A stretch of DNA of 60,934 nt, filler included, from 6 parts of 6 records of this genome joined end to end with filler, not necessarily neighbours in it; one strand, 5' to 3'; shown: positions 1 through 36,600, counted from the first letter of the whole stretch. Translations and numbers: made by a program. The notes: generated by a model not told the origin, from the sequence alone.

Positions 1-1
1 C

Positions 2-196
2 GACCGGTCTCGTCGAAGCCTCGTGGCAGCAACCGGCTGCAGAGGACGCAACGTTGCTAGGCTTGTGCATCATCGCGTTCCTCGGTTCCTTGTGGCGTGG
101 TTGCTAGCCTCGGTCGACTGCGCCCGTCCCCAGGACACCCTAGGAAATGAGTCTGGCGCCACTCCAGCTTCGAGCACCTCCAGTCCTAACGCATGA
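2..196 (+). CDS. 3' end of a gene entering from the left edge (possibly a short-chain dehydrogenase C-terminus)
   Basis: Frame 2 is open from the window start to TGA at 194-196 (DRSRRSLVAATGCRGRNVARLVHHRVPRFLVAWLLA...PNA*), followed by an AT-rich convergent spacer. Resemblance to SDR C-termini is weak. Confidence 0.35.
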   Translation, partial: DRSRRSLVAATGCRGRNVARLVHHRVPRFLVAWLLASVDCARPQDTLGNESGATPASSTSSPNA

Positions 197-440
197 AGGT
201 CTACGTACCAGGTATTAAAATAGTACGATTTTCCCCGGCCCCCCTGATAATACGAGGATCTCTACAGCACATGTACAGTATTTAGTAGTAGATCTCTAGG
301 ATGACCATGAGGATTTTAATTGGAACAATCAGTTATCTTTACAGACTTTACTACTCCGGCGTACAAGTAAATCTTTACCAAAATTGTCAAGGTTAGATTG
401 TTACAAGTTAGTAGTAACTGTTACTATCGTCGATACTCTA

Positions 441-2681
441 TCAATACTTCAGGATGAGACCACCAAAGCTTACGCCTGCGCTTGTGCCGCACAAAAGCAC
501 CTTGTCACCGCGTTTGATCTTGCCCTGCTTGACACCCTCATAAAGCGTGAGAGGGATGGACGCAGCAACACAATTACCGAATCCCTCAATTGTTGTGATG
601 ATTTTCTCCTTAGGCCACCCCAACGCCTGTAGTGAGGAGAGCCCTGCCCCACTAGCTTGATGCGGGACCACCCATTGCAGATCATGCAGTCCCTTCGACA
701 GGCCCGGAAGGAGTCTCTCGAGATAGTGTTCCAAGTGCTTTCCCGCAAATTCCATCATGCTCGGGTGCATACTTAGGTACTGGTCTTCAGTCTGGGTTTG
801 GCCGCCTTGGCCCAGCCCAGCGTGCTCATTCGGAAGACGTCTGTTGCCACCGCCTCGAATCTCACATAAGTCAGCACCCTCGGAGAATGTCTCGATTTCA
901 ACCCTGACTATCGCACTCTCTTCGTGAGCTCCGCTCGGCACCACCACTACTGCGGCAGCAGCGTCACCAAATAAAACAGCCGAATGCATGTCGTTGGGAT
1001 CTAAGCCATGGTGTGTCATCTCGCTCGATGATATAACTACAGCCTTGAACCGACCAGTTGTGATCAGGGCTCCAGCCAGGTCCATCGCTGTCACAAAACT
1101 GAGACACGTGCTACTAACACTGAAGCATGTGATTCCCGATTGGCTGAGCCCTAGTGCTCTCTGCAGCAGGGGGCTACCATCTGGCAAGGATTGGTGATAA
1201 GTACCACTTGCATTGATGATGCAATCGATTTGCTCTAGGGTCATGTTGGCTGACAGCACTGCCTCGCGCACAGCGTGTGCCGCCATCTCTGGCTGGCTCT
1301 CGCCGCAGTTGGGATCGGCCATGTGCCGCTGAGTCACACCACTCTGCACTCTGTCAGTGCTCCCAGGATCCCAGCCAAACCGTTTCTCTAGGTCGGCATT
1401 TGTTACCACCTTGCGAGGCAAGTATCGCCCAACGCCTGCGATGCGCGTGTGGTAACAGAATGAGGGCGCGTTTGCAGCTCGTTGCAAGACTATTGCCGAA
1501 GCGCCATCTGCATCGCTGCTCGCCAGCTTTTCTGCAGCTCGTGTGCTGATCTGGTGCACGCGCTTGACGTAGCGCTGCATTGCATCAGTTTTGCTGAGCC
1601 CGGCCGCCTGACACCACCCCCGCCACTTGAGCATCTGTCTGGTCTGAGCTGCCGGAGGGGCTTCAGCCTTCTGGTCGCCCAGCTTCGCCTGCTTGTAGTG
1701 GCCGTAGAGATAAGCCGCATCATCAGTCGAGATGTACAGGGCCATCCCTGGCAACATGGCAGCCGCGACCTCAAACTGTCGAGTGACTGAGAGGCCAGGC
1801 TCGAGCCACGGCTGGGGCGGCCCAGCACTACCTTGTGACAGTAGCAGCGCGCGAAGGCGGCTGATGATTCCATACCGTTGATCTGCAAACGTCCCAAACA
1901 GGTACAAGTAGCTCGTGTAGACGAGTCCCGTCGCCAGCAGCGAGCTATCCGAGACGGCACATGACACTCCACTCAGCTTCTTGAGCCAACCGGCCAGCCC
2001 GACTAGTGCTATTGCGATTGCCATTTGAGCACACTGGGCGAGTGTGATGATGAGCGGCACCCGCGAATGCCGGATCTCAGGGAAGAGGTCGGCCAGCCCA
2101 AAGTAGGAGTACATGCCGGCATGCACCCCGAAGTTCATCGTGGCGAGCCATGCGCTAGTAGGGCTCTGCTGCACGCACTCATTCCAGGCTAGGAGCATCG
2201 CCGACGGATGGTGCCACAGATGGAGCGCCGACGGCCGCTTGCCGGCACTCAGCAGCAGCGCGGTGTCGCCAAACTCAAGTAGCTTGGACCAGACGAACAG
2301 CATCGCCCACAGCCCGGCCGCCCCCTGGGTAAGTAGCCCCTTGGCCTCCTCGTCGCATACGGTGTGCGCCAGCCCGTCCGCCCACAGGGTATGAACCAGC
2401 GCCGGCGCCAGCCTGGTGAACCCGATCGCAGAGAACAGCGCCAGCCCTATGTTCCAAGCGACCCGTATCCAGGGCGGCAGCGCCAACGTCGGCTGCCGCG
2501 CCGCGTGCCACAGGCCGACGGCGAAGACATAGCCCAGCGCGGCATAAGCAGACCAGAGCTGGTGCTCGCGCATCCAGCCGGTCGCTGGCCCGGCATCGAA
2601 CGAGTTCTCGAACGGCGTGTAGGCAAAATGCCCGAGCCCGCCCGGGTAGGACCAGGCCGGGCAGGAGTGGTCGCCTGTCAT
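441..2681 (-). CDS. Fusion protein: ELO/GNS1-SUR4 fatty acid elongase + acyl-CoA-binding (ACBP) domain + KAS III (FabH-like 3-oxoacyl synthase)
   Basis: One uninterrupted ORF from ATG 2681. ELO motifs KLLEFGDT, HLWHH, NFGVHAGMYSYF and ITLAQCAQM with TM helices. ACBP motifs LYGHYKQA, KWRGW and AMQRYV. KAS III motifs IAGVGRYLP, STCLSF (catalytic Cys), LFGDAAAA, PHQAS (His) and GNCVAASIP (Asn). Confidence 0.92.
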   Translation of the reverse strand: MTGDHSCPAWSYPGGLGHFAYTPFENSFDAGPATGWMREHQLWSAYAALGYVFAVGLWHAARQPTLALPPWIRVAWNIGLALFSAIGFTRLAPALVHTLWADGLAHTVCDEEAKGLLTQGAAGLWAMLFVWSKLLEFGDTALLLSAGKRPSALHLWHHPSAMLLAWNECVQQSPTSAWLATMNFGVHAGMYSYFGLADLFPEIRHSRVPLIITLAQCAQMAIAIALVGLAGWLKKLSGVSCAVSDSSLLATGLVYTSYLYLFGTFADQRYGIISRLRALLLSQGSAGPPQPWLEPGLSVTRQFEVAAAMLPGMALYISTDDAAYLYGHYKQAKLGDQKAEAPPAAQTRQMLKWRGWCQAAGLSKTDAMQRYVKRVHQISTRAAEKLASSDADGASAIVLQRAANAPSFCYHTRIAGVGRYLPRKVVTNADLEKRFGWDPGSTDRVQSGVTQRHMADPNCGESQPEMAAHAVREAVLSANMTLEQIDCIINASGTYHQSLPDGSPLLQRALGLSQSGITCFSVSSTCLSFVTAMDLAGALITTGRFKAVVISSSEMTHHGLDPNDMHSAVLFGDAAAAVVVVPSGAHEESAIVRVEIETFSEGADLCEIRGGGNRRLPNEHAGLGQGGQTQTEDQYLSMHPSMMEFAGKHLEHYLERLLPGLSKGLHDLQWVVPHQASGAGLSSLQALGWPKEKIITTIEGFGNCVAASIPLTLYEGVKQGKIKRGDKVLLCGTSAGVSFGGLILKY

Positions 2682-2796
2682 CACTCTGCGCGTGCCACAC
2701 CTGGTTGACCAAAGCGAGACTCCCTCCTGCGGATTCAGCTTCAGGAACGAAAGAATCCCACCTCACTGCTCAGGACATGAGGGTGGGCGGGCAGAG

Positions 2797-5067
2797 ATGA
2801 AGTCGGACCCGCCCGAGGAGGGGGACCGCATCACGACTCCCAACGCCCTGTTGTCAGCCAGAGCGAACGGGCTTGCTTGCCCGACTGCCACAGCCGCCGG
2901 CTGCTTGTGCGCGGCGCTGGCCCGGCACTTGGTCCGACCGACCCAGCTCCGGGGGGCACTCGGGAACTGGTTCGGACAACACTGCCCGCACGGCCCGGTG
3001 CCAGCTCAGCTGATCCAGTGGAGGGCGCACGCCATCCGGACACCGCACCGACCGTGTGTCATCTTCAAGCGGCCAGACTTCCAGCCGGCTGGCTGCCCGG
3101 ACTGGCTGCCGGTGTTCCTGTGGCCGGGCTCCAATCCAGTGCCGCTTATCCTCCTGGCCGCCGCTGTGGTGGTCGCCGCTCTCATGACTGCTGCGGTCAT
3201 CGGCTCGCGGTCGTTGGACGGATGGCTGGTTGGAGGAATCGCTGTGCTGCTGGCTGACCTCGCTTGGTGGCTCTCGCGTAGGAAGCGCCGATTCGCCCAG
3301 GCGGTTATGCGCAACCGGGAATGGTCCAGCCTGAGCTTCCGCGATTTCCACCGCCAAATGGAGGCCGCCCTCAGCCAGCTTAATGCGAGGGGTCCGCGCA
3401 CTATTTGGATGCTTCAGATGCCCGAAGATCAGTCCCAGCTCCTAGTTTGGTACATGGCTGCTATGCTGAGCAACAGCACATACTTAGCGCTCGACCCGAA
3501 TGCATTCCCTATCTGCGAGTACATCAAGCACGTGGAGTCGTTCCAACCCGATTTAATAGTGGCCACATGTCCAATCAAGTGCATCGTTCGGGCTCTGCGC
3601 ATATGCTGCTGCTGCTTTAAACACATAACGTCATTCATAACTCTCGTCACCAGCAGAATCGCGCGCCGCAAGATTGACGCTGCTCGCTTCAGACAGCCTG
3701 ATGATACTGCAATCGTCGCAAATACCTCTGGCACAGGTGGAACAAGCAAAGCTGTTCAGCTCACCCGCGGTAATATGGCAGCTCAATTCGAGTCCTTCAA
3801 GGATCTCGTCCTGACGAGCGAGGCGCGTGTATCCTTGCACGCGCACCCGATACCAGCAGGGGTTTGTGACATGTGTCTTGGGGCAACGCTTGTGTTCCCA
3901 CCCTTTATGCCGCCAGGGGAGATCGACCGCCACTTCCTGCTGGAGCATTACATCAAACCTGCCAATGCATATCGGGTCGAGTGTATGAGCGCTCCAGTCA
4001 GGACATGGGAAGACATTGCAGACTTTGCGTGCGAGCAATCAGCGGATCCAGCGGATCCCCGAGTTGTTCTTCCATCGGTAGAATCTGCGCTGACCGGTGG
4101 TACTCCACTCTTCATTGGACTACTCAACCGCCTGTGCTGTCCAGAGACTGGCTGTGCACACACACTGCAGGAAGGGGTTTGCCTCACCAGCGTTTATGCT
4201 CTCACCGAGGCGCTACCAGTGGCCTCAACCCAAAGTTGCCGCCACTTGTGCTCTAGGAGGTATCGGGCACGTGCAGAGCTTGGCTGTGGTGTTCCGTTCG
4301 GTTCAGCTCTGGGGGATGCCCAGCTTCATTTAGTTCCGCTGGTTCTAGATCTCTGCGAGACGCAGTTCCCGCTCCCGCTGGCAAAGTTGGCAGTCTCAGG
4401 TCCGATGGTGGCTAAGAGTTACGGCACAGACACTGCAGCACAGTTGGATCTGCCGCACGTGGTGGTGCAAAATGCCTGGTCTGATGCGGCTCCAGTTTCC
4501 GCTTTTTGTACTGGCGATTTGTGCTGGGAAGACCCGTGCGGGGAGCTTTGGTACTGTGGGAGACAAGCGGACGTGCTAGGGTTTCCATCAGGCCGTGACG
4601 CAATTACATGTGTCCCGCCTGTGTGTGTAGAGAGTGCAGTCTATTGTTCTCCACTTGTGCGCCAGTGTTGTCTGGCGAGTGTGAGCTGTAATGAGGCTGA
4701 GACTCCTGTGTTAGTGGTGAGAGTTGCCGACAGCCAAGCAGCTGAGTCATGGACCTCGGGTGAGACACAGCTCGAGTTAATTTCCTTGCTAAATAAGTGC
4801 ATTTGGGCCGCTGCATTACGCCGCATCGGTCTGCTCAAATACGAAGATGACAGCCCATTTCCAACAGATTACCGTCACAACTCTAAAATTCAAAGGCATC
4901 TGATACAGGACTGGGCCGCCGAGAATTCGGTTGACATGGATCTCTTCAGTCTGGAAGCTAATACCGAATCCTCACTTGACCGTGCATTTGGTTTTGACGA
5001 AGACTTGCCGAAGGGTGAAGCCACTTTCGAGGCTCCGGTGTTGACGGCGATTGGAGTCGAGATTTGA
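2797..5067 (+). CDS. OleC-like AMP-dependent (ANL superfamily) ligase / putative beta-lactone synthetase with N-terminal membrane hairpin
   Basis: ANL motifs NTSGTGGTSKAV (P-loop), YALTEALPV, TGDL and WYCGR. The C-terminal FPTDYRHNSKI matches the OleC-type FPVDIRHNAKI with the catalytic Lys. First in-frame ATG is at 2797. Confidence 0.8.
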   Translation: MKSDPPEEGDRITTPNALLSARANGLACPTATAAGCLCAALARHLVRPTQLRGALGNWFGQHCPHGPVPAQLIQWRAHAIRTPHRPCVIFKRPDFQPAGCPDWLPVFLWPGSNPVPLILLAAAVVVAALMTAAVIGSRSLDGWLVGGIAVLLADLAWWLSRRKRRFAQAVMRNREWSSLSFRDFHRQMEAALSQLNARGPRTIWMLQMPEDQSQLLVWYMAAMLSNSTYLALDPNAFPICEYIKHVESFQPDLIVATCPIKCIVRALRICCCCFKHITSFITLVTSRIARRKIDAARFRQPDDTAIVANTSGTGGTSKAVQLTRGNMAAQFESFKDLVLTSEARVSLHAHPIPAGVCDMCLGATLVFPPFMPPGEIDRHFLLEHYIKPANAYRVECMSAPVRTWEDIADFACEQSADPADPRVVLPSVESALTGGTPLFIGLLNRLCCPETGCAHTLQEGVCLTSVYALTEALPVASTQSCRHLCSRRYRARAELGCGVPFGSALGDAQLHLVPLVLDLCETQFPLPLAKLAVSGPMVAKSYGTDTAAQLDLPHVVVQNAWSDAAPVSAFCTGDLCWEDPCGELWYCGRQADVLGFPSGRDAITCVPPVCVESAVYCSPLVRQCCLASVSCNEAETPVLVVRVADSQAAESWTSGETQLELISLLNKCIWAAALRRIGLLKYEDDSPFPTDYRHNSKIQRHLIQDWAAENSVDMDLFSLEANTESSLDRAFGFDEDLPKGEATFEAPVLTAIGVEI

Positions 5068-5184
5068 CCACATGTGGCTTTGATTGACGTCACAAATTAT
5101 TAAAGCAAAGGAGACTAGAATCTGTATTACGATCGCGAGTACACGTACTTGTATAATCTAACAGTTTCATCCCCGTATCTAAGC

Positions 5185-6129
5185 TTAGAACAATTCACGG
5201 AACGCCCGGCGAGCAGCTGGACCACGAAGTTTTGCACCGGGAGCAGCTCCGGTCACACGCGGCAGATCTAACCAATCTCTGAATTTGGACAAGCAATGTG
5301 CCGCGCAGATCATCGGTTGGATCACCAACTTGGCGAAGACAAATGCAGATAATACCTTGAGCATCAGCAATACCCCATTGACATTGGTTGCCCGCCACGT
5401 CCCTCGGGCGTACTCTAAGCGCCCGGGGGCATGCTCGTGTTCATGCTTCCACCAAACCGAGATGCTGCAATTGAACCGGCCCTTGTGCACCACATAGTGC
5501 CACCAACACCGCGGCACGTACAGAACGTCGCCGGGCTCGAGCAGCACTGTCGAACCCAGGCCGGCAAGCTCTCGGGCGTCACGCGCCGCCAGAAAGTGCA
5601 GCGGGAAAGGCAGCGCCGGCACGTCTGGCCCTGGGGCGATCAGCCTCACCTCCTTGGCGCCGCTCAGCACTTGAAGGAAATTGTGGTCCCCACGTGCGTC
5701 CCAGTGGAGCCAGGAAGCGAACTCCGGCTCGTCGCGCACTGGAGGCGCACTCGACAGCCACATCCCCACTGCCTGCAGGAGGCTCTTGGCCGGCAGGAGG
5801 TCAGCGACCCTCCCAATATCGCCCGGGCGCGCAGTCGTCTGACCGCTGCTCGTACCTAACGCCGCACCACTCGTGTACCATAGTGCCGTGCGGGCTGTGG
5901 CTGATGCCAGCGTCATTGGCCACCAGACGGCAGATCGGGCCACCGCGGGGAAGGAGCCAGATGGACTGAACGCCGCGATGTGGACCGGTAAGGTCCCTGC
6001 GGCGGCGCGGCTCAGGCAGCGGGCGTGGGTCGCCTCAAAGTCTCTCACACGCTTTAGTCGCGCAGGCCGCCCGCCCTGCACGTGCTCTCGAAACTCGGCC
6101 TCGCTCTGGGCTTCACTGATGGTGGACAT
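5185..6129 (-). CDS. JmjC/cupin-8 Fe(II)/2-oxoglutarate hydroxylase
   Basis: HWD...HNFLQVLSGAKEVRL and LEPGDVLYVPRCWWHYV give the HxD...H metal triad and the 2OG-binding Lys. Hydrophobic C-terminal segment. Start at ATG 6129 preferred because ATG 6213 abuts the ATAD3 start. Confidence 0.85.
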   Translation of the reverse strand: MSTISEAQSEAEFREHVQGGRPARLKRVRDFEATHARCLSRAAAGTLPVHIAAFSPSGSFPAVARSAVWWPMTLASATARTALWYTSGAALGTSSGQTTARPGDIGRVADLLPAKSLLQAVGMWLSSAPPVRDEPEFASWLHWDARGDHNFLQVLSGAKEVRLIAPGPDVPALPFPLHFLAARDARELAGLGSTVLLEPGDVLYVPRCWWHYVVHKGRFNCSISVWWKHEHEHAPGRLEYARGTWRATNVNGVLLMLKVLSAFVFAKLVIQPMICAAHCLSKFRDWLDLPRVTGAAPGAKLRGPAARRAFRELF

Positions 6130-6130
6130 C

Positions 6131-6177
6131 CTCCACTGGGCGCTCCAAACACCCTCCACTGGCGCGCTCCAAACGCC
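6131..6177. repeat. Two-copy ~23 bp tandem repeat in the divergent spacer between the JmjC and ATAD3 genes
   Basis: CTCCACTGGGCGCTCCAAACACC followed by CTCCACTGGCGCGCTCCAAACGCC. Confidence 0.8.
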
Positions 6178-6213
6178 GAGGAATCCCAACGGACCCGAAC
6201 GTCCCCGAGCCAT

Positions 6214-8621
6214 ATGCGCGGTGTGGGTCGGGTTTCGAAGCTGCTGCCGGCGCGGGTGCGGTCCATGTGCCGGGGCGGGGCGTACGACGACGCTCGGTTC
6301 AAGAAATTCGTGCGGGAGGAGAACGACAGGGTTCGCGAGGTGGTGGCCGGCATGGTACGGGACAGCAGCGAGGCTGAGCGGAAGGCCAACGCGGCGCTGC
6401 TCGGGCTGTCGGTGCTGGGTGGCGTCTGTGTGCTAATGAACCTGTCGGACGAGTTCGCAAACGCGGTGGCGCACCTGCTCCGACTGAAGTCCACCTCGCA
6501 CACTGTCAATGTCCAGGCCGGCGGCGGTGCCAGCGGCCGCGGACAGGGCCAGCCGGGTCCTCCGGGCCCGCGCGGACCACCTGGGTCAGTGGACCAGGCG
6601 GAATTGAGCCGGGCAATTGGGCTCCAGCTGGGCAAGCTGGCCGAGCAGGCAGAAAAGGCCGCAGAGCGCAAACTGGAGGTGAGCCGGCAGATGCAGCGGG
6701 AACGCACCAAGGCCGAGGCCGAGGCCCAGGAGAAGCAGGCTCAGGCCGAGCAGCGGAGACGTGCGGAGGACGCACGGGCAGCCGAGCGGGCGCGGGCTGC
6801 GGCGGCCGTGGCGCACAAGCAGCAGCTTGAGCGGGCTGCGGAGCACGCCAAGAGCGAACGGAGGGCTGTGTCGGAGCACCAGAGGCGTAAGGCCGAGCAG
6901 GCCCGGGAGGCGGAGCAGGCGGCGCTCATGGCGCAGCGGCAGCTGGCGGAAGAGAGGAAGCGGGAGAGGGAGCAGGCCGCCAGGGAGCTGATGACCTCGC
7001 AGCAGCGGCTGCACCAAGATAAGCGCCAGAGGGAGGAGGAGGCTATCAAGAACGAAGCGCGACTGGGGGCGGCCAAGCGGGAGGCGGAGGCCAAGTTGGC
7101 GGCTCAGAGGGAGAAGCAGGCGGTCGAGCAGGAGCGCAAACTGCTTGAGTTGAGGCAAGAGGCCGAGAGCCGGATGGCTGCGGAGAGGGAGCGCCGAGAG
7201 ACCAGTGTGGCAGTGGCGCAGGCAAAGGCTAAGGCAGAGGCCGAGGCCGAGGCTGAGCGACAGAACGAGCAAGTCCGAGCTAGGGCTCGTGCTCAGGCGG
7301 GGGGGATTGAGAGCGATCGTGCGGTGAGGGTGGCCAGCACGGTGCTCAGCTCGATAGGTTCCGGGGTTCAAGGTTTGCTCGCCGACACGGAGCGACTCTC
7401 TCGGCTTGTGGCGGCCACTGGGGCGTTAGTGGTGGTCGGATTCACCGCCCGGGAGGGTGCCAAGCTGGCCCGAGGGCTGCTCGCGGCCACTCTTGGGCGG
7501 CCTGGGCTAGTGCGGGAGACCTCGCGGCTGGTGTGGACTAAGCCAGTCCAGTCGCTCCGGCAGCTGCAGCAGCGCTTGGCTCGGACCGCGAGTCTAGACC
7601 GGGCCTTCTCTGAGGTGGTGCTCAACCCACCGCTTCGAGCACGGATGCAAGGGATAGCGGAAGCCACCAAGAACACTCGCGCTAACGGAGCACCGTTCAG
7701 ACACACGTGCTTCTACGGTCCACCCGGCACAGGGAAGACAATGCTGGCTAAGAAGCTAGCATACTACTCTGGACTGGACTACGCCATCATGAGTGGCGGG
7801 GACGTGGGACCACTTGGGTCTGGAGCCGTCACTGAGATTCATAAACTCTTTGAGTGGGCAAGGTGGCAGCCAAGCCCTGCTGCCAGCCAGCAGTTGGCAG
7901 GTATTCGCGTAACGGGCTCCTGCTGTTTGTGGACGAAGCGGAGACGTTTCTAGCCACACGCGACTCGCACATGTCGGAGGCCCAGCGCAACGCGCTGAAC
8001 GCTCTACTCTTCCAGGCATTGCGTTGGGCGACTGCGGGCAGAGCCTGGGCAGACTGGGACCGAATCGCGCAACTTCATGCTGGTGCTTGCAACCAACAGA
8101 CCGGCCGACCTGGACGCGGCTGTGGTGGACCGGATAGACGAGATGGTTGAGTTCCCACTGCCCGGGCTGCAAGAGCGCCAGGAGCTGGCCCGGTGCTCCC
8201 CAGCCATGGAGAGGGCGAGCCTTGCGGGGCAGCATGTACTTCAAGTCTATGGTGGAGGAGAGCCGATCGAGCTCGCAGATTACGCTGACAGGGGTGGAGG
8301 GGAGCCACTTTTGTAGAATTGCGGAAATGACCGATGGATACTCGGGCCGAGCGTTGGCCAAGCTGATGATCTCTGTGCAGGTAAAGCCCGTGTAGTGCCG
8401 CAGCTGACGCTGGCTGTGATATAGGGCTATGTTTATGGTAAATCGGAGCCGAAACTGGACGGACCGGAGCTAATGGAGGTCACCTGCCGGTTTTAAGGCT
8501 TGCACTTACTTACTTGTGTGGTATTCTGCATGCGTAGGTGGTCGAGCAAAAGGTCGCTGCCTATGCTAAGCGGACGAAGCTGGAAGAGCTTCAAGAGCAA
8601 TACTTCGCGCGTGGGTCTTAA
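6214..8621 (+). CDS. ATAD3: ATAD3-family mitochondrial AAA+ ATPase (spliced, 5 introns)
   Basis: Coiled coil, LGRPGLVRETSR, Walker A YGPPGTGKT, DYAIMSGGDV, Walker B LLLFVDEAE and VLATNRP. The frame is restored by introns 7863-7900, 8016-8052 (GC-AG), 8193-8232, 8381-8424 and 8479-8537. Stop TAA at 8619-8621. Confidence 0.92.
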
Positions 8622-8789
8622 TTAAAGTGTACATGTACCATGTGATTCAGCAAGTTGGTGATAATCACGAGCGAGTATTAAGACGTTCAGTCGGATGAAT
8701 AGATTAATGTTGCATGAATTTAAAACGAGACTACCGACCCGCTTAGTACCGATCCGCGCCGAGGTTGATTAGAGATTGATCATGAAGGC

Positions 8790-10052
8790 TCAATGCGGCT
8801 GTTGCATGTGTCGGATAGCTCGCCCAAGACGTTCTAAGAGGGACCACGGTACTCGCTGGCGCCAGCCAAGGTGACTGGCATATACTTGCATCAACTCGAC
8901 AGCAGACGTGGCACCTCGAGACCGCTTGAAGTCTCCGGCACCGCCAGACGCATGACAGCATAAGCCGTGCCGCTTCGCCTCTTGCATAATCTTCAAGCTC
9001 AGCAACCGGTAAAGTCCCACAGCTTGAGGCAAGCGCGTCTCGTACCCAAAAAACGGAGTTGTCAAGAGCCCACCACGCCGGTAGTAGCCAATGACGCCGT
9101 CAATTTCTCCGTGCCGTACGTTGACAAGGATGAAGACCGTAAGCAGCTGTTGGGTCACAGCTGTGCGTACAAACTCTGCCGTATACTGGGGATTGCAGGC
9201 GGTATACTTGTCAATGTATAGCAACACATAGAGCTCAACCACTCGATCTAGCACTCTGGGAGCTGGTGCACTATCGAGTAATTGCCACTCATATTGCCCA
9301 TCAGAACTGTCGGCGTTGCATAGCTGCTTCCTGGCAAGCTTCTGGTCATTCTTTATGGGATTCCTACCCCAGACTTCCTCGGAGAGCACGTCTTGGTAGT
9401 GAACATACCGCTCAGGGACCCGAGACCAGCCCAGCTTGTCTAGCGCCGCTAAGGTGTGTGGGCTGCCGATTTCATCCAGAGATCGGTAGGCTAGGGCGTG
9501 GCTCGGGTGTGAGGCGAGCAGCTCTTCTGTCAATTCCCGGAGAAGCGCTTCCAGCCGTTCGGGCTCCTTGGGCATCTGGCTGGGGTGTAGGTTGGTGGAG
9601 AGTAGAAAGTTGTTCACATAGACCACTTTATCCATGCTGCAGCACCACCCCACCAATATCCAACACCAGCAGACTCCTATCAGCACAGCCGCCGCCACCG
9701 CTGCCACAAAATCGGCCAGCCCAGCTGGCTTGAGCCCGCGCAGTTGAAGCCTCCGGGCGAGCACGGGCCGGAGAACAAGCACTTCATCGATCACAACCCA
9801 GCCAAAATGCGAGTGAGCGGACGAGGTGTATGATCGTCGCCACGGCCAACAAGGCCGCCGGCACGGCCGCGACAGTGGAACGAGCACTCGGCCGTGGCCC
9901 AGCACCGCAAGCCCCACCTCAGTCCCCCCTGCGTTCCTTATGAAAGCTTCAGTCCCCCCGGCGGCCAGCTCACAGAGGTACCTGCGCACAAACTGGGACT
10001 CCGCGTCGGCGGGCCAGCTGAGGCTCTCCAGCTCGGTGCCCCAGTAAATCAT
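8790..10052 (-). CDS. Bacterial-type GNAT/FemAB-fold protein with an inserted TM segment
   Basis: Intronless ORF with motifs VNNFLLSTNL, LYIDKY..CNPQYT..F, TTPFFGYET.LPQ.VGLYRLL and HASGGAGDFKRSRG. The last is the typical C-terminal G..FK..G signature of GNAT_6/Fem-like proteins. Confidence 0.7.
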   Translation of the reverse strand: MIYWGTELESLSWPADAESQFVRRYLCELAAGGTEAFIRNAGGTEVGLAVLGHGRVLVPLSRPCRRPCWPWRRSYTSSAHSHFGWVVIDEVLVLRPVLARRLQLRGLKPAGLADFVAAVAAAVLIGVCWCWILVGWCCSMDKVVYVNNFLLSTNLHPSQMPKEPERLEALLRELTEELLASHPSHALAYRSLDEIGSPHTLAALDKLGWSRVPERYVHYQDVLSEEVWGRNPIKNDQKLARKQLCNADSSDGQYEWQLLDSAPAPRVLDRVVELYVLLYIDKYTACNPQYTAEFVRTAVTQQLLTVFILVNVRHGEIDGVIGYYRRGGLLTTPFFGYETRLPQAVGLYRLLSLKIMQEAKRHGLCCHASGGAGDFKRSRGATSAVELMQVYASHLGWRQRVPWSLLERLGRAIRHMQQPH

Positions 10053-13030: not shown

Positions 13031-13318
13031 TGTCCACTATGCTCCCACGGAACACTATACTACTCCGATTATGTGCCAACGAACATCGAATCTCTGGTAG
13101 ACCAGCAAGGACCTTGCTGGTCAGCCGGCGAGGACGCCAAACTTGTGCTCAACTACTTGTACTTAACAGACTTAAAACGCGATTCAGGCATGATCTGATC
13201 ATGCAGATCTATTCATGATGAGAAATTGCTATTGAGACTAACTTTAATCAATGAAACAAATCATGTTGTCTTGATGCACTCCAGCCCAGGCAAAGTGCCG
13301 TTACAGTGCCATTGCGCA

Positions 13319-13909
13319 ATGATCCCAGTTGTGGGCCTCCTGCTCAGCGGCTACGTGCCCGATGCCTTCTTCTCGGCGCTTCTCGCGGCCTTCCCACTCC
13401 GAGTCCACTCGGGCTACCAAGCGCTGCTGCTCGCCACGGCGCTCGTCTACCTCCCGGTGAGCCCTCGGCGGGCTGACAAAAAAATTGAGCTGGGCGGACA
13501 GTTCGGGCTCAATTTGCTGTACAAACTCAAGCTGACAGGCGGCAAAGTGGACAACGTCAACCCGCGCAAGCAGGCCGAGACGCTCAAGGCCACCCACCCG
13601 GCTTTCGCCCGACTGGCGGTGCGCAGCCCTGCCCTCATGGCCGGGACCGGCTGGCTACAGGCGGCCGAGCAGAACATGCAGGAGGGGATGCTGATCTTTG
13701 CGCCGGCCGTGCTGGCCGCCACGCAGGCCGGGGTTTCCAAGGTGCTGATCTGCCAGTTTGGTACTGCCTGGCTGCTCGCCCGCGCGGCCTACGTCTTCGT
13801 CTATGCTATTGGATCGAACGAGGCCCTAGGCGCACTCCGGTCTTTGCTGTTTGTCATCAGCCTTCTGGCCACCGGGAAGCTGCTCCACGCGGCAGCCGCG
13901 CTGGCTTGA
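13319..13909 (+). CDS. MAPEG family membrane protein
   Basis: DNVNPR.Q, AAEQNMQEG (AH.N..E-like) and LARAAYVFVY, with about 4 TM helices. Confidence 0.8.
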   Translation: MIPVVGLLLSGYVPDAFFSALLAAFPLRVHSGYQALLLATALVYLPVSPRRADKKIELGGQFGLNLLYKLKLTGGKVDNVNPRKQAETLKATHPAFARLAVRSPALMAGTGWLQAAEQNMQEGMLIFAPAVLAATQAGVSKVLICQFGTAWLLARAAYVFVYAIGSNEALGALRSLLFVISLLATGKLLHAAAALA

Positions 13910-15487: not shown

Positions 15488-17129
15488 ATGGAGCCGGCCG
15501 CGGACGACGAGGCGGCGCTGAGCCAGCTGCGGAAACAGAACGCGGAGCTCAAGGAGCAGCTCCACCTGCGGAACGACGCCGAGGACAAGGAGCTCCGGCA
15601 ACTGTTCCCGCACCTGCCCGACACGGAACACGTTATAGACTACTTCGCCTGCGCACTCTCGGCCAAGATCCTGCTGCAGGGTGCCCGGCCCGGACGCTCG
15701 GCCGGCCATCGAGGGCAGGCTGGATGTACCTGACCCCGAATTATATATGCTTCTCTTGCAACCTGCTCGTGTACAAGCGCCGCGAGTGCTTCGAGCTGAA
15801 GGAGGTCACAAAGATCTCCAAATCGCGGCACGCTGGGGTGGGCGCGGCATGGGTCGGCCCCGGGCCGAGGCCGGTCAGGTCAATCCGGGGGTGTGTCTGC
15901 ACCTAGGCAGCAAGAAAGTCTTCTTCTTCTCGTTTTTCGATCGGGATAAGGTTGGCGGCCGGGCCGAGCCGGGCTGCAACTGGCGACAGGTGATGATGCT
16001 GCTCCAACGGCTGGTCGACCTCCACAAGGAGCAAGACGAGGACGCGGAGGAGGACTTTGAAGAATACGTGTACGAGGTGAACCGACCGCGCCGCGCTACT
16101 GAACCGGGCGCAGGACGTGGTGGCCTCGATCACGCCAGAGGGCGGCTCCGCATTCCCGGAGGCCGCTGTAGACAAGGACGAGTCCGGTGGCTGCCGGGGG
16201 CTGCCGGGGGCTGAGGGATGTGCAGCGTATAAGAATAAAGTGCACAGCTGTGAGCTACCTATGACTACTAGAGAGGCGTTTGCGTTGCTGTACTCCGAGC
16301 CTAGCAACTTCACGATGAAGAACAAGGAGTACGAGGGCGCGTCGGAGGTGTCTCCAACGGCAGCCCCCGGGCCTAGGCTCGGCCAGATCACTATCTCCCA
16401 ATGGGCCACCCCAGCGGACAAAAAGGAGGGTTGGATCCGAGAACTCAATTTCCGTTATCCTCTGGACGGGATACCGATGTGTCCGCCGAGCACGATGGTG
16501 CACGAGGTTCAGCACTGCAGGTGCCCGGCCCTGCTCGGCGCCCGTCGAGCTCCTTGGATCAGGCTGGACACCGAGACTGGCCATTTGGTGGTGGTTTATG
16601 CAGTGCAAAGCCACGACGTACCGTACGGTGCCCGACCGCACCCACCCGCGGCTCAGGGCCAGGCAGGCACCTACTTCACTGTAGAGACTAAACACATATT
16701 CTCGCCTGTGGGCGAAGACAAGTGCCGGCTGGAAATCTCTATGGAGGTGCAGTCTCTCGTCGCTCGAACTGAGCCAGACGCAGGTCTGTTTCTCCAAGTC
16801 GACTTTCCTCGAGGGCAAGATCACCTCCAACACCGTCTCGCGCGAGATCGAGCGCTGGAAGGAGTGGTGCGTGTTCGTTCGAGACTACGTCGAGAGGAAG
16901 AAAGGGCTCCGCAGGTGCAGCCCAATGCAACTGGCAGGCGGCTGATCGGCTGTGAAGGTCGGCCAAGCCGTTGCCGTCCAAGCAGTCGGGCAAGGGCGAG
17001 AAGCAGCAATCGCGAGGTTATGACGACTTTGTGGCGATGGCGATTGGAGCGATGCTGATAGTTGTGTTGTTCCTAATCTGGAGAGTCAATTCACGGGTGC
17101 GGGTCTTACAAGACGCCAACCTAATTTAG
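15488..17129 (+). CDS. GRAM + VASt (StART-like) lipid transfer protein with C-terminal TM anchor (Lam/Aster type), multi-exon
   Basis: GRAM: YFACALSAKILLQG|WMYLTPNYICFSCNLL (intron 15681-15718). VASt: ITISQW...RELNFRYP...SHDVPYG..FTVETK...KCRLEIS. TM: FVAMAIGAMLIVVLFLIW. TAG at 17127-17129. Confidence 0.88.
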
Positions 17130-30656: not shown

Positions 30657-33600
30657 TCATATCGTGTCGTAACGTACAGTTGTCCGGGCCGCATTGCGAA
30701 GAACCTGAGCCAAAAGCTCTTCATCCAGGTTGGGGTAGCTAGGAACTGTGATATAGTTTTCGCATTGTCTTGCAAACGGGCCAGCTGCTGAGGAGGAAGG
30801 TGGATCTTCCAAGTGAAACCCAAGCTCTTCTGGCAAGACAGGGGTGCCGGTTCCAAAAGCAATCAGCGCAAGCCGCTCATCGACAGAGAACTGCCTCAGC
30901 ACTGCCCAGACGCACCGCTCAAGGTCAGCAAGTTCGTTCGGGTCATTTCCACGCCCTTCTGAAGTCCGAGAATCTACAAAGTGCAGTCTACCAACAAAGT
31001 CTTGCACTGACACGTCTCCAGACTTGCCTGCAAGCAGCAACTGGAGGTCTTCCGCCGTGAGACCCTGCAGTGAGATCTCTGGGACAACGTCCAGGAGCCC
31101 AATTTTCATGTTTTCGAGCTCGAGCTTCACGCCGTCAATCATCTCTCCTTTCGCAAAACGGCGCACATATGCTGCCCAGTTGTTTCTGGTGACTGGAATA
31201 GCGTTGCCATCAGGAGTCCATTGGGCTGAAAATTCTAAGCTCATTGAAGAGATATCGAAACTCGGATCCTTCGCGATTGTCTTGATCAGATTTGTAATGG
31301 AGGTATACGTGTCGCCCTTATAGTAAGCTAGGTCCGCTAGGGACACTCGGCGTCCAAGCAGATACTTGTACACATGACGATGGAAGAACACAGGCAGGCG
31401 GCAATCGAACAGCAAAGACAGCCCAAGCAGCCTTCCGACGTTCCGGAACTTCTGCAGCCTCTCAGGCTCACGGGTGCTCCAGCTTGCTGGAGAGAAATGA
31501 CGCAGCTGTTCTTGTGCATCCGACGTTTCTTCAATGCTCTGGTCCGAGGTTAGCAAATCCTCGTCAAATCGCAGAACATGGGCCACTTGAGCAAGGCACG
31601 ACCGAAGCAAGGCTGATCCCTCTCCAAGTTCACCTTCAAATTTGGCCGTGAGCGTTTGTACAGCCAGCGGTGGGACTGACGGCTTTCCTGCATTAGTGTC
31701 TCGCGGGTTCTGAGCTGTCACCTCGACGTAGCACAGATCCATTGACCGGCTGACTTGCTGGAAGATATTGTGCTTGGTGTCCCGACTCACATTGAAGAGC
31801 AGCTTTCGACCCTCACACTTCTCACGCCGCAGCTGAGCCATCTCGGTGCGGAACCGCTTCTCTTTCTTTTCATAGCTGGCCATCAAATGTAAGAAGGAGT
31901 CTGGGCCCACAACAGCTTCAGCTTCGCTGAATTCATTCGCAAACTTCGCAATGGCCATATCCCAGCGCGCCAAAATATCCACTAGCCCTTGCTCCTTCCA
32001 TGGTTGCGATGTTATGGCTTCTCGTGGAGGCGACTTTGCTTCTACGTGCTCCCTTGCAATCTCGGCAACAGGATCAGTCACTTTTCGGAGGTGGGACACG
32101 TTTCGCATCATTCGATCCTTGTGAAGCCACTCTTGCACCCCGCAGCTCTGCCATGCCACAATGGCATCGAGCACAATAGCTACATGGCCATAGTTCGCTT
32201 CAGTGACATTTGGAGCCACCGACAAGACATCCCCATGCGCTGCTCGCAAGCAGGCGAGCAGTCCTCCGTGCAGCTCAGCAGTTGCCACTGCAGAGGTAGC
32301 CTTGTTGGTCCGCGGAAGCCTTTGCACTCGCAGCTCAGCTGCCTTTAGCTGTGCTTGTGTAGAGTCCATCACATGAAAAATCCATTCCCACGACGAGTCG
32401 AGCTGATATCCGGCACATAGCATGGCATCCTCGATCTTTTTGGATCTGAGGGCTCCTCGGGCTTTGTTTAGGATCCCCATAGTGGTGGGAGACTTAGGAC
32501 TGATAATGTCATTCACGCTGTTGATGTTAGATACTGGGGTTGTTGGCTGCTTACAGAGTTCTTCCTTGGCCACAAAAGCAGACTTGTAAATCTCCACCAT
32601 TGTGCGGACCAGAAAGTTGAATGTTGATGCACATACAATGCGAGGATCCTGCTTAGCAGGAGGTCGGGTTTCTTTGCTGCTAGTTGAAACAGTGCTAGCC
32701 TCGCGCTTCCGGGCAAGGGCACTTGGCACCCAAGGCAATTCCGAGTTTGCATTGCTGGTTGCATCTGGAGTGGGAGCAGGCTTTGGTATCAACCGGTCAG
32801 GTATTCCTGGTACTGGCCCAGATAGAGACCCCCCTCCACTTCTGCCCCATCGCATCTTGACGGTTCGAATCTTAATATTATGGCCACGTGTGCGCACAAA
32901 CGCAATATGGACACAGCCTGGAGTCTCGATAGGCTGTGTGAGTAGTTCTGTCCAACCCTCTTGTGCAAGTACATGAGTATGCGCCTCGCCTGCATCAGCG
33001 TTTTCTCGGACAGTCACTCTGACTTCCTGCGGACAATAAGAATCGTCGCTTGACGCGGAGCAATACATCTCCAGAGACTCAAGAACATTATCCCGCTCTG
33101 CAAACTCAAACTCAAGCCAGTGTGTGTTCATTGCCCCGTTGCTCTGCCAGTACCTGTCTAGGCCTGGCAGCAGTATATTGCCGGCAGAGCGCTGTGACGA
33201 AGACGCCAGGACGTTTGCAGCGGGTTGCTTGGACGAATTGGCAGGTCCACACCGCCGGTGTCCAGACCCACCAAAGCAGACTCTGCCAATCTCGGTGGCC
33301 GGGAGGTGAGCCCCTGGCTGTCCAGACGCTACTAGCGGCATCCCCAGCCGCATTGGCTTCAGTACCAATGAGGCAGTTTCCGAGAGGCACTTGATGGCTG
33401 CTTCGGGGACCATATGCAGAGCACCAACAAGTGACTCCCGCAGAGGATCTGACGCATCTCGTGTTGCAGCTCCTGCAAAAGTTGTCGTGAGCACTCGGAC
33501 AACAGCCTGGACCCATCGCTCAGCTGTGCTGCTCATGTGAGTGATTCCAAATGTAAACAGCTTCGCAGCAGTTTGGGTCACTGCCTTTGCCAATTCTTGT

Positions 33601-36600
33601 TTACCTGTCTGGCTACACAGCAGGCTCCACACAAACACGTCTACTGCTGCGCACTCGCCTGAGAGAGCACGCTGCACTGCCTGTAGTGATCTACCACATT
33701 GTGCTGCAAACGATAGACGGTCCAGTGGACCTAACACTGTGTAGGCTTCCAGGGCTGAAAGTCCATTCAGGTCCTGCGACGTGCGCAATTGCTCGTAATT
33801 CAGCATTTTCTCTACAAGTTCTGAGCACGAAGATTCCAATGGAGGGTTGCCTTCTGGGAGAGGGACGGCGTGTACTGACAACCCGAGTAGGGCATGCAGT
33901 GGAGGGGTGCCACCTAGATCAGCTGGAGAGATTGCTGCGAGTTTGGTGGCATCGTCGCACTTTGCTGCAACACATGCGGACTCGACCTCTTCAAGCATCG
34001 CTAGCGCAGTGGTGATGTTGCCATTCTCTAATGCAACAAAGAACGGTGTGCGGCCACCAGAGTCACACGCCTTTAACAAAGAGACAAGTTGTTCTGGCTC
34101 TTTGCTCGCTGTGCAGAGCTCATTGAGAGAGGAAACCGCCCATACTTCATCAGGATGAGATGCAATGAGGTGCATCACATTTCGGCTGCCTCCAACAGTG
34201 TGGTCTGCATTCAACAGCACAGCTTTGTCTTCGGGCAGCTTGCTGTTTACTATGTCAAGCAGTGCAGACTTTGTCGCAGAGAACACAACCACAGTTGCAG
34301 CTACAGGGAGGTTCTCCTGCGGCTTGCTTGCAGGGGCAGCAGCGGCTGATTTTGAGAGAGACGAGATGCTGAGGGTTGGTCGGTCTTGTTCAAGTCGGAG
34401 CATGTAAGTGATGTGCTCACGTCTATTCAGCTCAAACCCGTCAAGCAAATCCTCCACTTCGGCATATTCCTCGGCTTCAAGCAGAGTGCGAATCTCAACC
34501 AGCGCAGGGTCCTCTCTCCTGCTTCCTTCACTTGGCTGCTTTTCGTTCGCCTCAGCTGGAGTACCATGCAAAAGCCCGAGGCTCATGGCGGCTAGAGATG
34601 TGGTGGGTCCAATCGCTGCACTGCACAACTGCAGCTCGCCGTCCTGAGTCTCGGCACAGTCCACTACTGCACCAAGTTCGCTGCACTTGAGCTTGCAGCC
34701 TTTAGACCTGCTGAGATGCTGCACTGTGGCCTGCCACTGCAGCTCTTCCATCGATGCATGCCACTGGACAACAATGCCTTCAGCTGCACCAGGCTGCTTT
34801 CGGCGCTTGAGGGCTGCATGCACACTCCAGCTGGTGGTTACAAGACCCAATACATCAAAGCGTCCAGCACCGGCTTCAATCTCCTGACACAAGTACGGAT
34901 GGACCTCGCCCTGGCTGCTGCCACTCTCGAGCTTGCCGCCAAATATACAGTGTGGTTCTGCTTGGAGCATTTCTGAAGTCTCCTGTATTGCGCTAGCAGG
35001 CGTCAGTTTGTGCACTGCAATGATGTGGCACTGCTTGAGCATCTGGTCTACCATTCCTTCAGCAGCCGCGCCAGGGTCTTTCGAGTCCGAGTGCAGTCTA
35101 ACAAGAGCGGACATCCCCGAGGGCTCCAGCTTTAGAATTGTCCCCCGCTTTCTGCCTGCTGTGGGCGTCAAGAAGATCACAGAGGACGGCTGCAGCTTGC
35201 ATGGTGGCAGAGTTGTCTCAGTCGGGCTGACCACGTCAAACAGAGCTGTTGAATCGAAGTTGGTGACTGCTGTTCTAAGCTTGAGGAATATTGGGTGTCC
35301 AAGCACTCCGCTTGATGGTTCGTACATGGCCAAGGCACCCGCTTCATATATCTCCTCTCGGCGAATAAACACCTCATCTCCCTCGCGCAGCCCATCCACA
35401 GTGGGCGGGCTGAGCGGGGTCCCATCAGTGGCTCGAGGCAGTCTGATCTGGTATGCAGACAGCCTCAAAACGTGCACCCCGCCATCGCCATCCAGCCGAA
35501 CCTTCAAGTTGTTGTGATCCTCCGAATCAGACACAACAGTCGCCGGCTGGAACACGCCATCCCTTGTGAGCTTAGCCTCAACCTGAGTGCCCTGGTTTGG
35601 CGGCTTCCTCACCCCGCCCCTTGAACCCTGTGTCTTATGCGACGTGTGCGTGTGCAGTGGAGCCAACCGACTGCCGCACACCGGCATCCACTCATCCCTG
35701 TCCCAACCCACTCATTGAATCAAGCGCACGAGGCGACTATACCATTTGTTATCCCAGCCGTCAAAATTTATGAGCACAGATGCGCCATCAGCAGATCGCT
35801 TCACGACAGTGGCAGTGTACCTGGGCGTACAATTTAGAGGCAGCAGCCGGTATGCGCGGACACACCAGACAAAGTACTCATCCATCGCATCCACCGCAGT
35901 GTTCGACTCGTCAGCCAGCCAACTCCTAGCCTCTGATGCGGAGCCAGCGTCTCTAGCACTGACAACAGCTTGCCTCCACGGACAAGGCCGCCGGCCCCAG
36001 AAGAAAATCATCCCACTATCTGTCGCTGCCACGCTGAAGAGCTTGGAGGACGCTGCCACGTGAATCACTTTGCCTGCAGTCGCCAGTCGATCACACCGGC
36101 ACACAAGACCGTTGGCAGTACCTGCTTCTGGCGGCACTTTGAGCTCCATCCACTTGTGCTCGAGCGCACTGAAAGCCTCAGCACCGAGTGGGTGCCGCAA
36201 GCTCTGGTCATGCCACGAGGCCACGCGGCCCTCGAGAGTCAGCGCCGTGCACCGGAGCAATGAGCCTGCCAGCTGCACCACAGAGTCGCCCTGAAGCTCC
36301 CTAGAATACCAAACTCAGGCCTTCTGGCTCGAAAAACGGACCTGAGAAAGCCGGGACTGGCCGTATTATCCACCGCAGCGTCTTCGGGCTGTGCTGTCCA
36401 CGGCCAGATGGCAATGGTGCCATCACTCTTAAGCCCAACCACCGCTGCAACAGACAGGCACCGTGAGCCAAAGCAGCAGCAGCTGGCCAGTACCTGAGAG
36501 CATGGCCACCAACTGGGAGCACTGGAGTGGCTTCTGGCTGGGCCCGAGCCACTGTACGGCAGGCCCGTCGAGCTGGAACGCCTGGGCCAGCTGCTGCTGC

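Follow-up and report, generated by a model that had tools for sequence, protein, structure and literature searches.

Does the unusual grouping of genes at one end of a eukaryotic DNA stretch encode a lipid pathway, and if so, where did that pathway come from? The stretch in question (60,934 nucleotides, which in its entirety is referred to here as the window) carries five genes in its first 10 kb, one of which (gene A) joins the elongase domain ELO, an acyl-CoA-binding domain (ACBP), and a KASIII-type thiolase domain on a single polypeptide. A preliminary description had placed beside it an OleC-like ligase (gene B), a JmjC hydroxylase (gene C), ATAD3 (gene D), and a GNAT/Fem-fold protein (gene E), and had read all but ATAD3 as a cluster for Ole-type lipid chemistry. 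Pfam matches and coordinates place the five genes where they were claimed, with the order and orientation originally given. Comparison with bacterial loci shows that the eukaryote's KASIII domain, its ligase, and its Fem-fold gene share descent from a single bacterial operon, and a grouping in which three of five genes trace to the same operon goes beyond chance. On balance, we favor the reading that these three genes are the eukaryote's remnant of a six-gene bacterial accessory operon and now constitute one lipid pathway. The hybrid character proposed earlier, a eukaryotic elongation module combined with bacterial-type enzymes, is borne out in this form, ELO-ACBP being accompanied by KASIII, the ligase, and the Fem-fold gene.

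Bacterial counterparts were gathered in two sets. The first comprised 80 metagenome loci fetched solely by KASIII similarity; for the second, species-representative genomes were scanned with an alignment of gene E, which returned 492 confirmed stretches, the best 80 of which were used, many of them ending at a contig end. The latter belong mostly to Chloroflexota (Anaerolineales, Caldilineae), with a few from Paenibacillus, Brevibacillus, and Sporomusa. The operon is widespread, its Fem-like gene occurring in at least 492 stretches of species-representative genomes, and its order is PRK09274/OleC-like ligase, OleD-like reductase, metallo-beta-lactamase-fold protein (MBL), Fem-like protein, KASIII, and ATP-grasp. 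One Chlamydiae metagenome-assembled genome (MAG; L097) is also among these 80 carriers of a Fem-like homologue, the others being Chloroflexota and Bacillota.

Two loci were annotated gene by gene. In L085 (Candidatus Villigracilis saccharophilus), the ligase scores 553 bits on PRK09274, above the cut-off, and stays below the cut-offs of the two OleC models (482 and 473 bits); the OleD-like, KASIII, and ATP-grasp genes score 268 bits on the OleD model, 346 on PRK07204, and 397 on PRK06849, respectively. Locus L011 contains a KASIII gene above the PRK07204 cut-off (421 bits), an ATP-grasp-like gene (PRK06849), a reductase that matches the OleD model better than any other (238 bits, below the cut-off of 580), an MBL closest to acyl-homoserine lactone lactonases, a homologue of gene E (PF13480), and a short-chain dehydrogenase/reductase (PRK06914, 357 bits); its adenylate-forming enzyme is instead related to F390 synthetase (TIGR02304, 482 bits). 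In L085, at 4234-5256, a plsX gene precedes the operon ligase by 1.2 kb, and a 231-aa open reading frame (ORF) situated between the two was found in just 1 of the 80 loci.

Gene neighborhoods across the 80 genome loci were counted by searching with the L085 proteins (E<1e-15) and taking genes no more than 8 kb from the Fem-like one. An MBL gene accompanies the Fem-like gene in 70 loci, KASIII in 69, ATP-grasp in 65, and the OleD-like reductase in 58, with the PRK09274 ligase present in 38, the F390-type enzyme in 9, and either adenylating enzyme in 47. Homologues of the window ligase itself (E<1e-8) occur in 37 of these loci, and in 30 a ligase homologue lies directly upstream of the OleD-like gene (<600 bp, same strand). 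In the KASIII-fetched metagenome set, 10 of 80 loci contain a gene E homologue, which adjoins the KASIII gene or lies about 5 kb off (identity 30-41%, E from 1e-30 to 1e-46); the window ligase and ATAD3 have no homologue in that set (E<=1e-5). Since the PRK09274/OleC-like ligase and the F390-type enzyme each occur, and never together (0/160 bacterial loci), they can be regarded as alternatives for one step. Locus L152, which is of the F390 type, nevertheless falls inside the ligase-type KASIII clade, suggesting that the operon has repeatedly swapped one adenylating enzyme for the other. Carriers of the ligase type include Litorilinea aerophila, represented by MAG contigs, and those of the F390 type include Paenibacillus agricola and Brevibacillus borstelensis. 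A separate true FabH was found in all five operon-bearing genomes inspected (392-406 bits, versus 199-205 for the operon copy), which argues that the operon is an accessory pathway and not part of core fatty-acid synthesis. OleD- and MBL-type genes, which the preliminary description had suggested looking for, both occur in this bacterial counterpart; in the 60.9-kb window, neither they nor ATP-grasp or F390-type genes gave a tblastn match better than E 0.3 with L011 and L085 queries.

The descent of the KASIII domain was traced with an IQ-TREE phylogeny of 60 rows and a FastTree phylogeny of 148 rows, which gave the same topology. All 11 KASIII domains from eukaryotes group in a single clade (support 99), whose sister is a Chloroflexota clade holding all ligase-type operons (support 97). 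The node joining the two is supported at 89 by IQ-TREE and 72 by FastTree, with the KASIII genes of F390-type operons and ordinary FabH-like genes placed further out.

How well established is the fusion as a protein family? The ELO portion spans nearly its whole Pfam profile, and the KASIII portion retains both thiolase halves with their catalytic residues. A full HMMER scan of the fusion against 1.84 billion protein representatives returned full-length look-alikes as the top matches (37-43% identity), the best covering residues 35-747. ELO with KASIII was found in 9 of the 10 best library matches scanned and ACBP with KASIII in all 10, the ACBP domains of P0007 and P0008 falling below the Pfam cut-off. 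The motif LH..HH is kept in all eight aligned sequences that cover the ELO site, and the alignment columns of Cys526, His674, and Asn703 show little or no variation; these motifs correspond to the histidine box of ELO enzymes and the catalytic triad of FabH-type enzymes. The alignments thus identify the fusion as a family conserved among eukaryotes, with at least 11 divergent members and intact active-site motifs. Word-index homologue searches yielded one match for the fusion and one for the ligase (P0002, of the same type as the window ligase), a protein atlas search with the fusion gave no usable match, and a scan of viral contigs found a single distant FabH and nothing else. In one metagenome contig (L004, 9.3 kb), the fusion has a histone gene beside it; another fusion contig (L001) spans 2.5 kb. 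We know of no ELO with C-terminal ACBP and KASIII domains, and none appeared in the literature searched. In that literature, supplementary files excluded, neither the fusion nor the operon was described; Figures S21-S23 of PMC9486936, which concern genome neighborhoods of KS clades, might bear on the operon.

The reaction of the KASIII domain can be approached through its relatives. Its best NCBIfam matches are FabH models, led by PRK07204 at 302.7 bits, and in a PDB search CorB (229 bits) and MxnB (225 bits) rank above the best FabH (150 bits) and the OleA structures (about 52-57 bits). Identity is about 45% to CorB and MxnB, 43-48% to the KASIII genes of ligase-type operons, and 37% to the F390-type operon KASIII of L011. 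The domain is accordingly not a member of the OleA family, scoring far lower against OleA head-to-head thiolases than against CorB or FabH. The product released by ELO is beta-ketoacyl-CoA. CorB and MxnB are stand-alone ketosynthases that take beta-ketoacyl-CoA substrates, as described in a portion of PMC9486936, and a shared intermediate of this kind would give the fusion a rationale: a 3-oxoacyl-CoA generator, an acyl-CoA holder, and a 3-oxoacyl thioester consumer would reside on one polypeptide. The nondecarboxylative catalysis of CorB has been tied, in the part of PMC5506619 consulted, to a proline following the catalytic His (HQP). PHQAS stands in place of HQP in the window KASIII, in 8 of the 9 other scanned fusion proteins, and in 103 of 138 KASIII sequences; one fusion protein, P0005, gave no PHQ match.

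The window ligase is an adenylate-forming enzyme of the ANL type (Pfam AMP-binding, 49.3 bits, cut-off 29.9). PRK09274 (NF006754) is its best NCBIfam match at 123 bits (cut-off 478), followed by the OleC models NF045786 and NF045785 at 73.6 and 61.4 bits, where the cut-offs are 900 and 850. The label "OleC-like" given in the preliminary description is thus fair solely as a nearest-subfamily designation, the enzyme not being a member of the OleC family. Against the L085 operon ligase, the window ligase aligns with 25% identity over 411 aa (E 7e-22), and the two have a C-terminal FPTD.RHNSKI tail in common. A crude hydropathy scan revealed a hydrophobic N-terminal extension on the window ligase that is absent from bacterial homologues.

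Gene E encodes a 420-aa protein with no direct match in Pfam (E<=0.01) or NCBIfam. It has 35 homologues, which carry PF13480, and its neighbors in the protein atlas are bacterial PF13480 clusters only. The AlphaFold (AF2) model (pLDDT 89) displays a tandem GNAT, and Foldseek matched it to Sbb17, the lipid-aminoacylating aminoacyl-PG synthases (aaPGS)/MprF, and FemX with E of about 1e-8 to 1e-6 at 9-15% sequence identity. The predicted structure and the homologues confirm the GNAT/Fem fold proposed for this protein, a fold like that of aminoacyl-tRNA-dependent transferases and tandem GNATs; the tandem GNATs matched include acyl-CoA N-acyltransferases. By the same crude hydropathy scan, the protein holds a hydrophobic insert of about 24 residues lacking in bacterial homologues. 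Together, the ligase extension and the Fem-fold insert would fit recruitment to the membrane in which ELO resides.

No such link emerged for gene C. Its domain matches Pfam through its C-terminal 40 residues alone, and its nearest solved relatives in the PDB are JMJD5, FIH, and TYW5, which hydroxylate protein or tRNA. No JmjC homologue was found in the 80 metagenome loci (E<=1e-5) or the 80 genome loci (E<=1e-8), and the gene was rejected as a lipid hydroxylase of the module. The cluster envisaged in the preliminary description is consequently upheld for genes A, B, and E, which are linked through operon descent, and not for JmjC (0/160 loci). ATAD3 is an unrelated housekeeping gene amid the module genes.

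Features of the first 10 kb are collected in Table 1. The contig is taken as eukaryotic and intron-bearing because ATAD3 has at least four frame changes, located between 7863 and 8538. The close spacing claimed for the fusion and ligase genes was recovered, and the intervening segment is presumably their shared promoter. A 157-bp contig from another marine metagenome is identical to 2608-2764, which covers the fusion 5' end and most of this spacer. Words of the window were listed for just two sequencing runs, both of marine metagenomes and to a small extent, and for no RNA run; none of the 60-250-base pieces from the two runs spans two genes. The longest JmjC frame (start 6213) and the first ATG of ATAD3 (6214) place these genes back to back; the JmjC start is probably the second Met, at 6129. 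The ATAD3 coiled coil (6741-7414) is Ala/Glu/Arg-rich and of low complexity and draws many unrelated metagenome contigs, with a depth of 461 over this stretch in one metagenome run and one contig that skips 6735-7231.

Table 1. Genes, domains, and spacer in the first 10 kb of the window
Feature	Position	Strand	Basis and remarks
ELO-ACBP-KASIII fusion gene (gene A)	441-2681	-	Pfam, NCBIfam; 746 aa from ATG 2681, single unbroken frame
ELO (GNS1/SUR4) condensing domain	1872..2567	-	PF01151, 145.6 bits, aa 40-271, profile positions 4-234 of 242; LHLWHH box intact, at aa 153
Acyl-CoA-binding (ACBP) domain	1557..1781	-	PF00887, 48.2 bits (cut-off 28.3), aa 302-376
KASIII-type thiolase domain	444..1448	-	Pfam PF08545 and PF08541, 62.7 and 80.8 bits, aa 521-747; NCBIfam PRK07204; Cys526, His674, Asn703
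Divergent intergenic spacer, fusion/ligase	2682..2796	.	115 bp between first in-frame ATGs
Adenylate-forming ligase (gene B), PRK09274/OleC-related clade, 756 aa	2797..5067	+	Pfam AMP-binding, NCBIfam
JmjC/Cupin_8 gene (gene C)	5185..6213	-	Pfam Cupin_8 53.1 bits, JmjC_2 25.9 bits; sits amid module genes
ATAD3 gene (gene D)	6214 to about 8621	+	Pfam ATAD3_N and AAA matches; at least 4 introns
Tandem-GNAT/Fem-fold transferase (gene E), 420 aa	8790..10052	-	AlphaFold model, homologues

Matches among the remaining ORFs scanned in the window were limited to MAPEG, VASt, and a sulfatase. The MAPEG-family ORF (13226-13909) and the VASt (lipid-transfer) ORF (16117-17058) lie 3-6 kb to the right of the module; both were considered as module members and set aside, as their lipid link is merely generic and no tie to the module was found. 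Very long ORFs are present elsewhere in the window at 30657-35711 (1684 aa), 42000-47969 (1989 aa), and 54253-59061 (1602 aa).

What might such a pathway make? In the scheme that we propose, the KASIII enzyme would have become fused in the eukaryote behind an endoplasmic reticulum (ER) elongase, ELO, and its acyl-CoA-binding domain, with the ligase acquiring its hydrophobic N-terminal extension and the Fem-like protein its hydrophobic insert. ELO would convert acyl-CoA and malonyl-CoA to 3-oxoacyl-CoA, which would be held by the ACBP domain until the CorB/MxnB-related KASIII performs a Claisen condensation with a second acyl thioester, giving a branched beta-keto or pyrone lipid. The OleC-related ligase would then adenylate a carboxylate, leading either to beta-lactone closure after reduction or to activation of an acid, and the Fem-fold enzyme would attach either an acyl group or, drawing on aminoacyl-tRNA, an aminoacyl group. 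We infer that the three genes still act together in one membrane-bound pathway, which we consider likely. The head-to-head, lipstatin-like chemistry of these steps is offered more tentatively, as a possibility somewhat short of even. Our leading guess for the product is a head-to-head-condensed lipid, possibly aminoacylated or a beta-lactone; beta-lactone or olefin chemistry as such is a guess. The scenario in its full detail is more doubtful still: marine eukaryotes would have captured a Chloroflexota-type operon and wired it into ER elongation, with the fusion intercepting 3-oxoacyl-CoA and joining a second chain head-to-head, and the product being finished by an aminoacyl transferase and an OleC-like enzyme anchored in the membrane.

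Several observations weigh against a retained operon-derived pathway of this kind. The window holds three of the six operon families (the KASIII domain, ligase, and Fem-like gene) and matches neither the full six-gene operon nor an oleABCD/oleACD cluster, and no characterized member of the bacterial operon was found. The window ligase lies far under every curated cut-off and is just 25% identical to the operon ligases. The make-up of the genome loci reflects a biased sample, these having been picked by Fem similarity, and the Fem tree agrees with the KASIII phylogeny just weakly: it gives the window protein a long branch, whose attachment to the clade containing the full set of 18 ligase-type rows is supported at 59. 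Tight head-to-head spacing, as the preliminary description itself cautioned, is normal in this genome and is seen for JmjC and ATAD3 too. Synteny in relatives, which had been put forward as a check, was not seen: in L004, the sole other eukaryotic fusion contig with flanks, neither a ligase nor a Fem-like gene occurs in the 4 kb upstream or the 2.4 kb downstream of the fusion. Lastly, because the KASIII domain reads PHQAS where CorB, in the part of the literature consulted, reads HQP, a FabH-like decarboxylative reaction is possible.

This last point leads to the best-surviving alternative, in which the same three-gene module would carry out other chemistry, without head-to-head joining or beta-lactone formation. 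Here, the ligase would make an unusual starter acyl-CoA, KASIII would extend it decarboxylatively with a malonyl thioester, ELO would elongate the chain, and the Fem/GNAT protein would move the acyl chain onto an amine, affording an N-acyl amino acid or lipoamino acid. Besides the PHQAS motif, the FabH models that head the NCBIfam matches of the KASIII domain, the naming of PRK09274 as a fatty acid CoA ligase family, and the acyl-CoA N-acyltransferases among tandem GNATs all suit this proposal, and the interchange of the ligase with the F390/PaaK-like enzyme suggests generic acid activation. The PDB ranking, however, sets CorB and MxnB well above any FabH, 30 loci have the OleD-like reductase next to the ligase, a true FabH is encoded separately in the operon genomes, and there is no evident gain from fusing two elongating condensing enzymes. 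We regard this alternative as unlikely, though not to be neglected.

That the three genes arrived together and have since lost their cooperation, leaving a relic of the transfer, appears to us quite improbable. The unrelated JmjC and ATAD3 genes now standing between the ligase and the Fem-like gene, the half of the operon absent from the window, and the fusion of L004 without ligase or Fem-like neighbors are all compatible with such a relic. Yet the three frames are long with intact catalytic motifs, the fusion family has been kept across 11 divergent eukaryotic sequences, and the hydrophobic segments gained by the ligase and the Fem-like protein suit the membrane location of ELO.

The preliminary description in its full form, according to which four genes including JmjC constitute an Ole-type pathway to a hydroxylated beta-lactone or olefin with OleB and OleD encoded left of the window, is very improbable. 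It draws on the location of JmjC among the module genes and on the OleD-like gene of the bacterial operon, but the absence of JmjC homologues from the bacterial loci, the protein and tRNA substrates of its solved relatives, a KASIII domain that is not OleA-like (about 56 bits), and a ligase far below the OleC cut-offs stand against it; moreover, no OleB-type alpha/beta-hydrolase is present in L011 or L085, although no systematic search for OleB was made. That the contig is a misassembled chimera, or that contaminating bacterial sequence was attached to eukaryotic DNA, a notion prompted by the exclusively bacterial relatives that the ligase and Fem-like gene showed in the searches made, has next to no likelihood given that these genes are interleaved with the intron-bearing ATAD3 and JmjC, that KASIII is in frame with a eukaryotic ELO in a fusion that recurs, once beside a histone gene, and that the marine contig identical to 2608-2764 exists.

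Returning to the operon-derived pathway, its enzymes can be set against described systems. As in oleABCD and oleACD, a thiolase-fold condensing enzyme, an ANL adenylating enzyme, and a 3beta-HSD-type reductase occur together in the bacterial operon, and the L085 ligase and reductase score substantially on the OleC and OleD models (482 and 268 bits). These scores are nonetheless under the cut-offs (900 and 580), the condensing enzyme falls outside the OleA clade, and the operon adds MBL, Fem-like, and ATP-grasp genes, while the eukaryotic window is without a reductase and has its condensing enzyme fused to ELO and ACBP. The enzymes are thus relatives of OleC and OleD that fall outside those families.

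The lipstatin pathway is encoded by lstA-F. It resembles the present system in the KASIII-like joining of two fatty chains, in its OleC-like and OleD-like enzymes, and in the attachment of an amino acid, which here would be performed by the Fem-fold enzyme (possibly tRNA-dependent) and/or ATP-grasp and not by a nonribosomal peptide synthetase; the eukaryotic version, in addition, holds just three of the six operon genes. LstAB is mentioned in the portion of PMC9486936 consulted. The nearest described kind, as far as the consulted part of PMC7064751 goes, is that of oleACD clusters without oleB, which are stated there to be likely beta-lactone makers.

Among single enzymes, the KASIII domain finds its best solved relatives in CorB and MxnB, ketosynthases that join chains in the making of corallopyronin and myxopyronin. 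They share its Cys-His-Asn triad, whereas the window domain lacks the HQP proline, lies outside a polyketide synthase cluster, and is fused to ELO and ACBP. ELO/ELOVL elongases likewise have the full-length PF01151 domain and intact histidine box but not the C-terminal ACBP and KASIII domains. FemX, MprF/aaPGS, and Sbb17 have the tandem-GNAT fold of gene E and differ in their low identity to it and in the hydrophobic insert of the window protein.

It is rare for an operon-derived gene cluster to remain together once it has moved into a eukaryote. If the reading favored here is true, a bacterial specialized-lipid pathway has been grafted onto a eukaryotic elongase through a gene fusion, which would give eukaryotes a way to make branched, ketone, pyrone, or beta-lactone lipids of very long chain length and would be a candidate source of algal long-chain lipids that lack a known biosynthesis. 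On the bacterial side, it would bring into view an operon for which we found no description and whose enzyme set resembles that of beta-lactone lipase inhibitors. The three genes and the at least 11 fusion proteins may offer a starting point for seeking long-chain lipids of a new class among marine protists.

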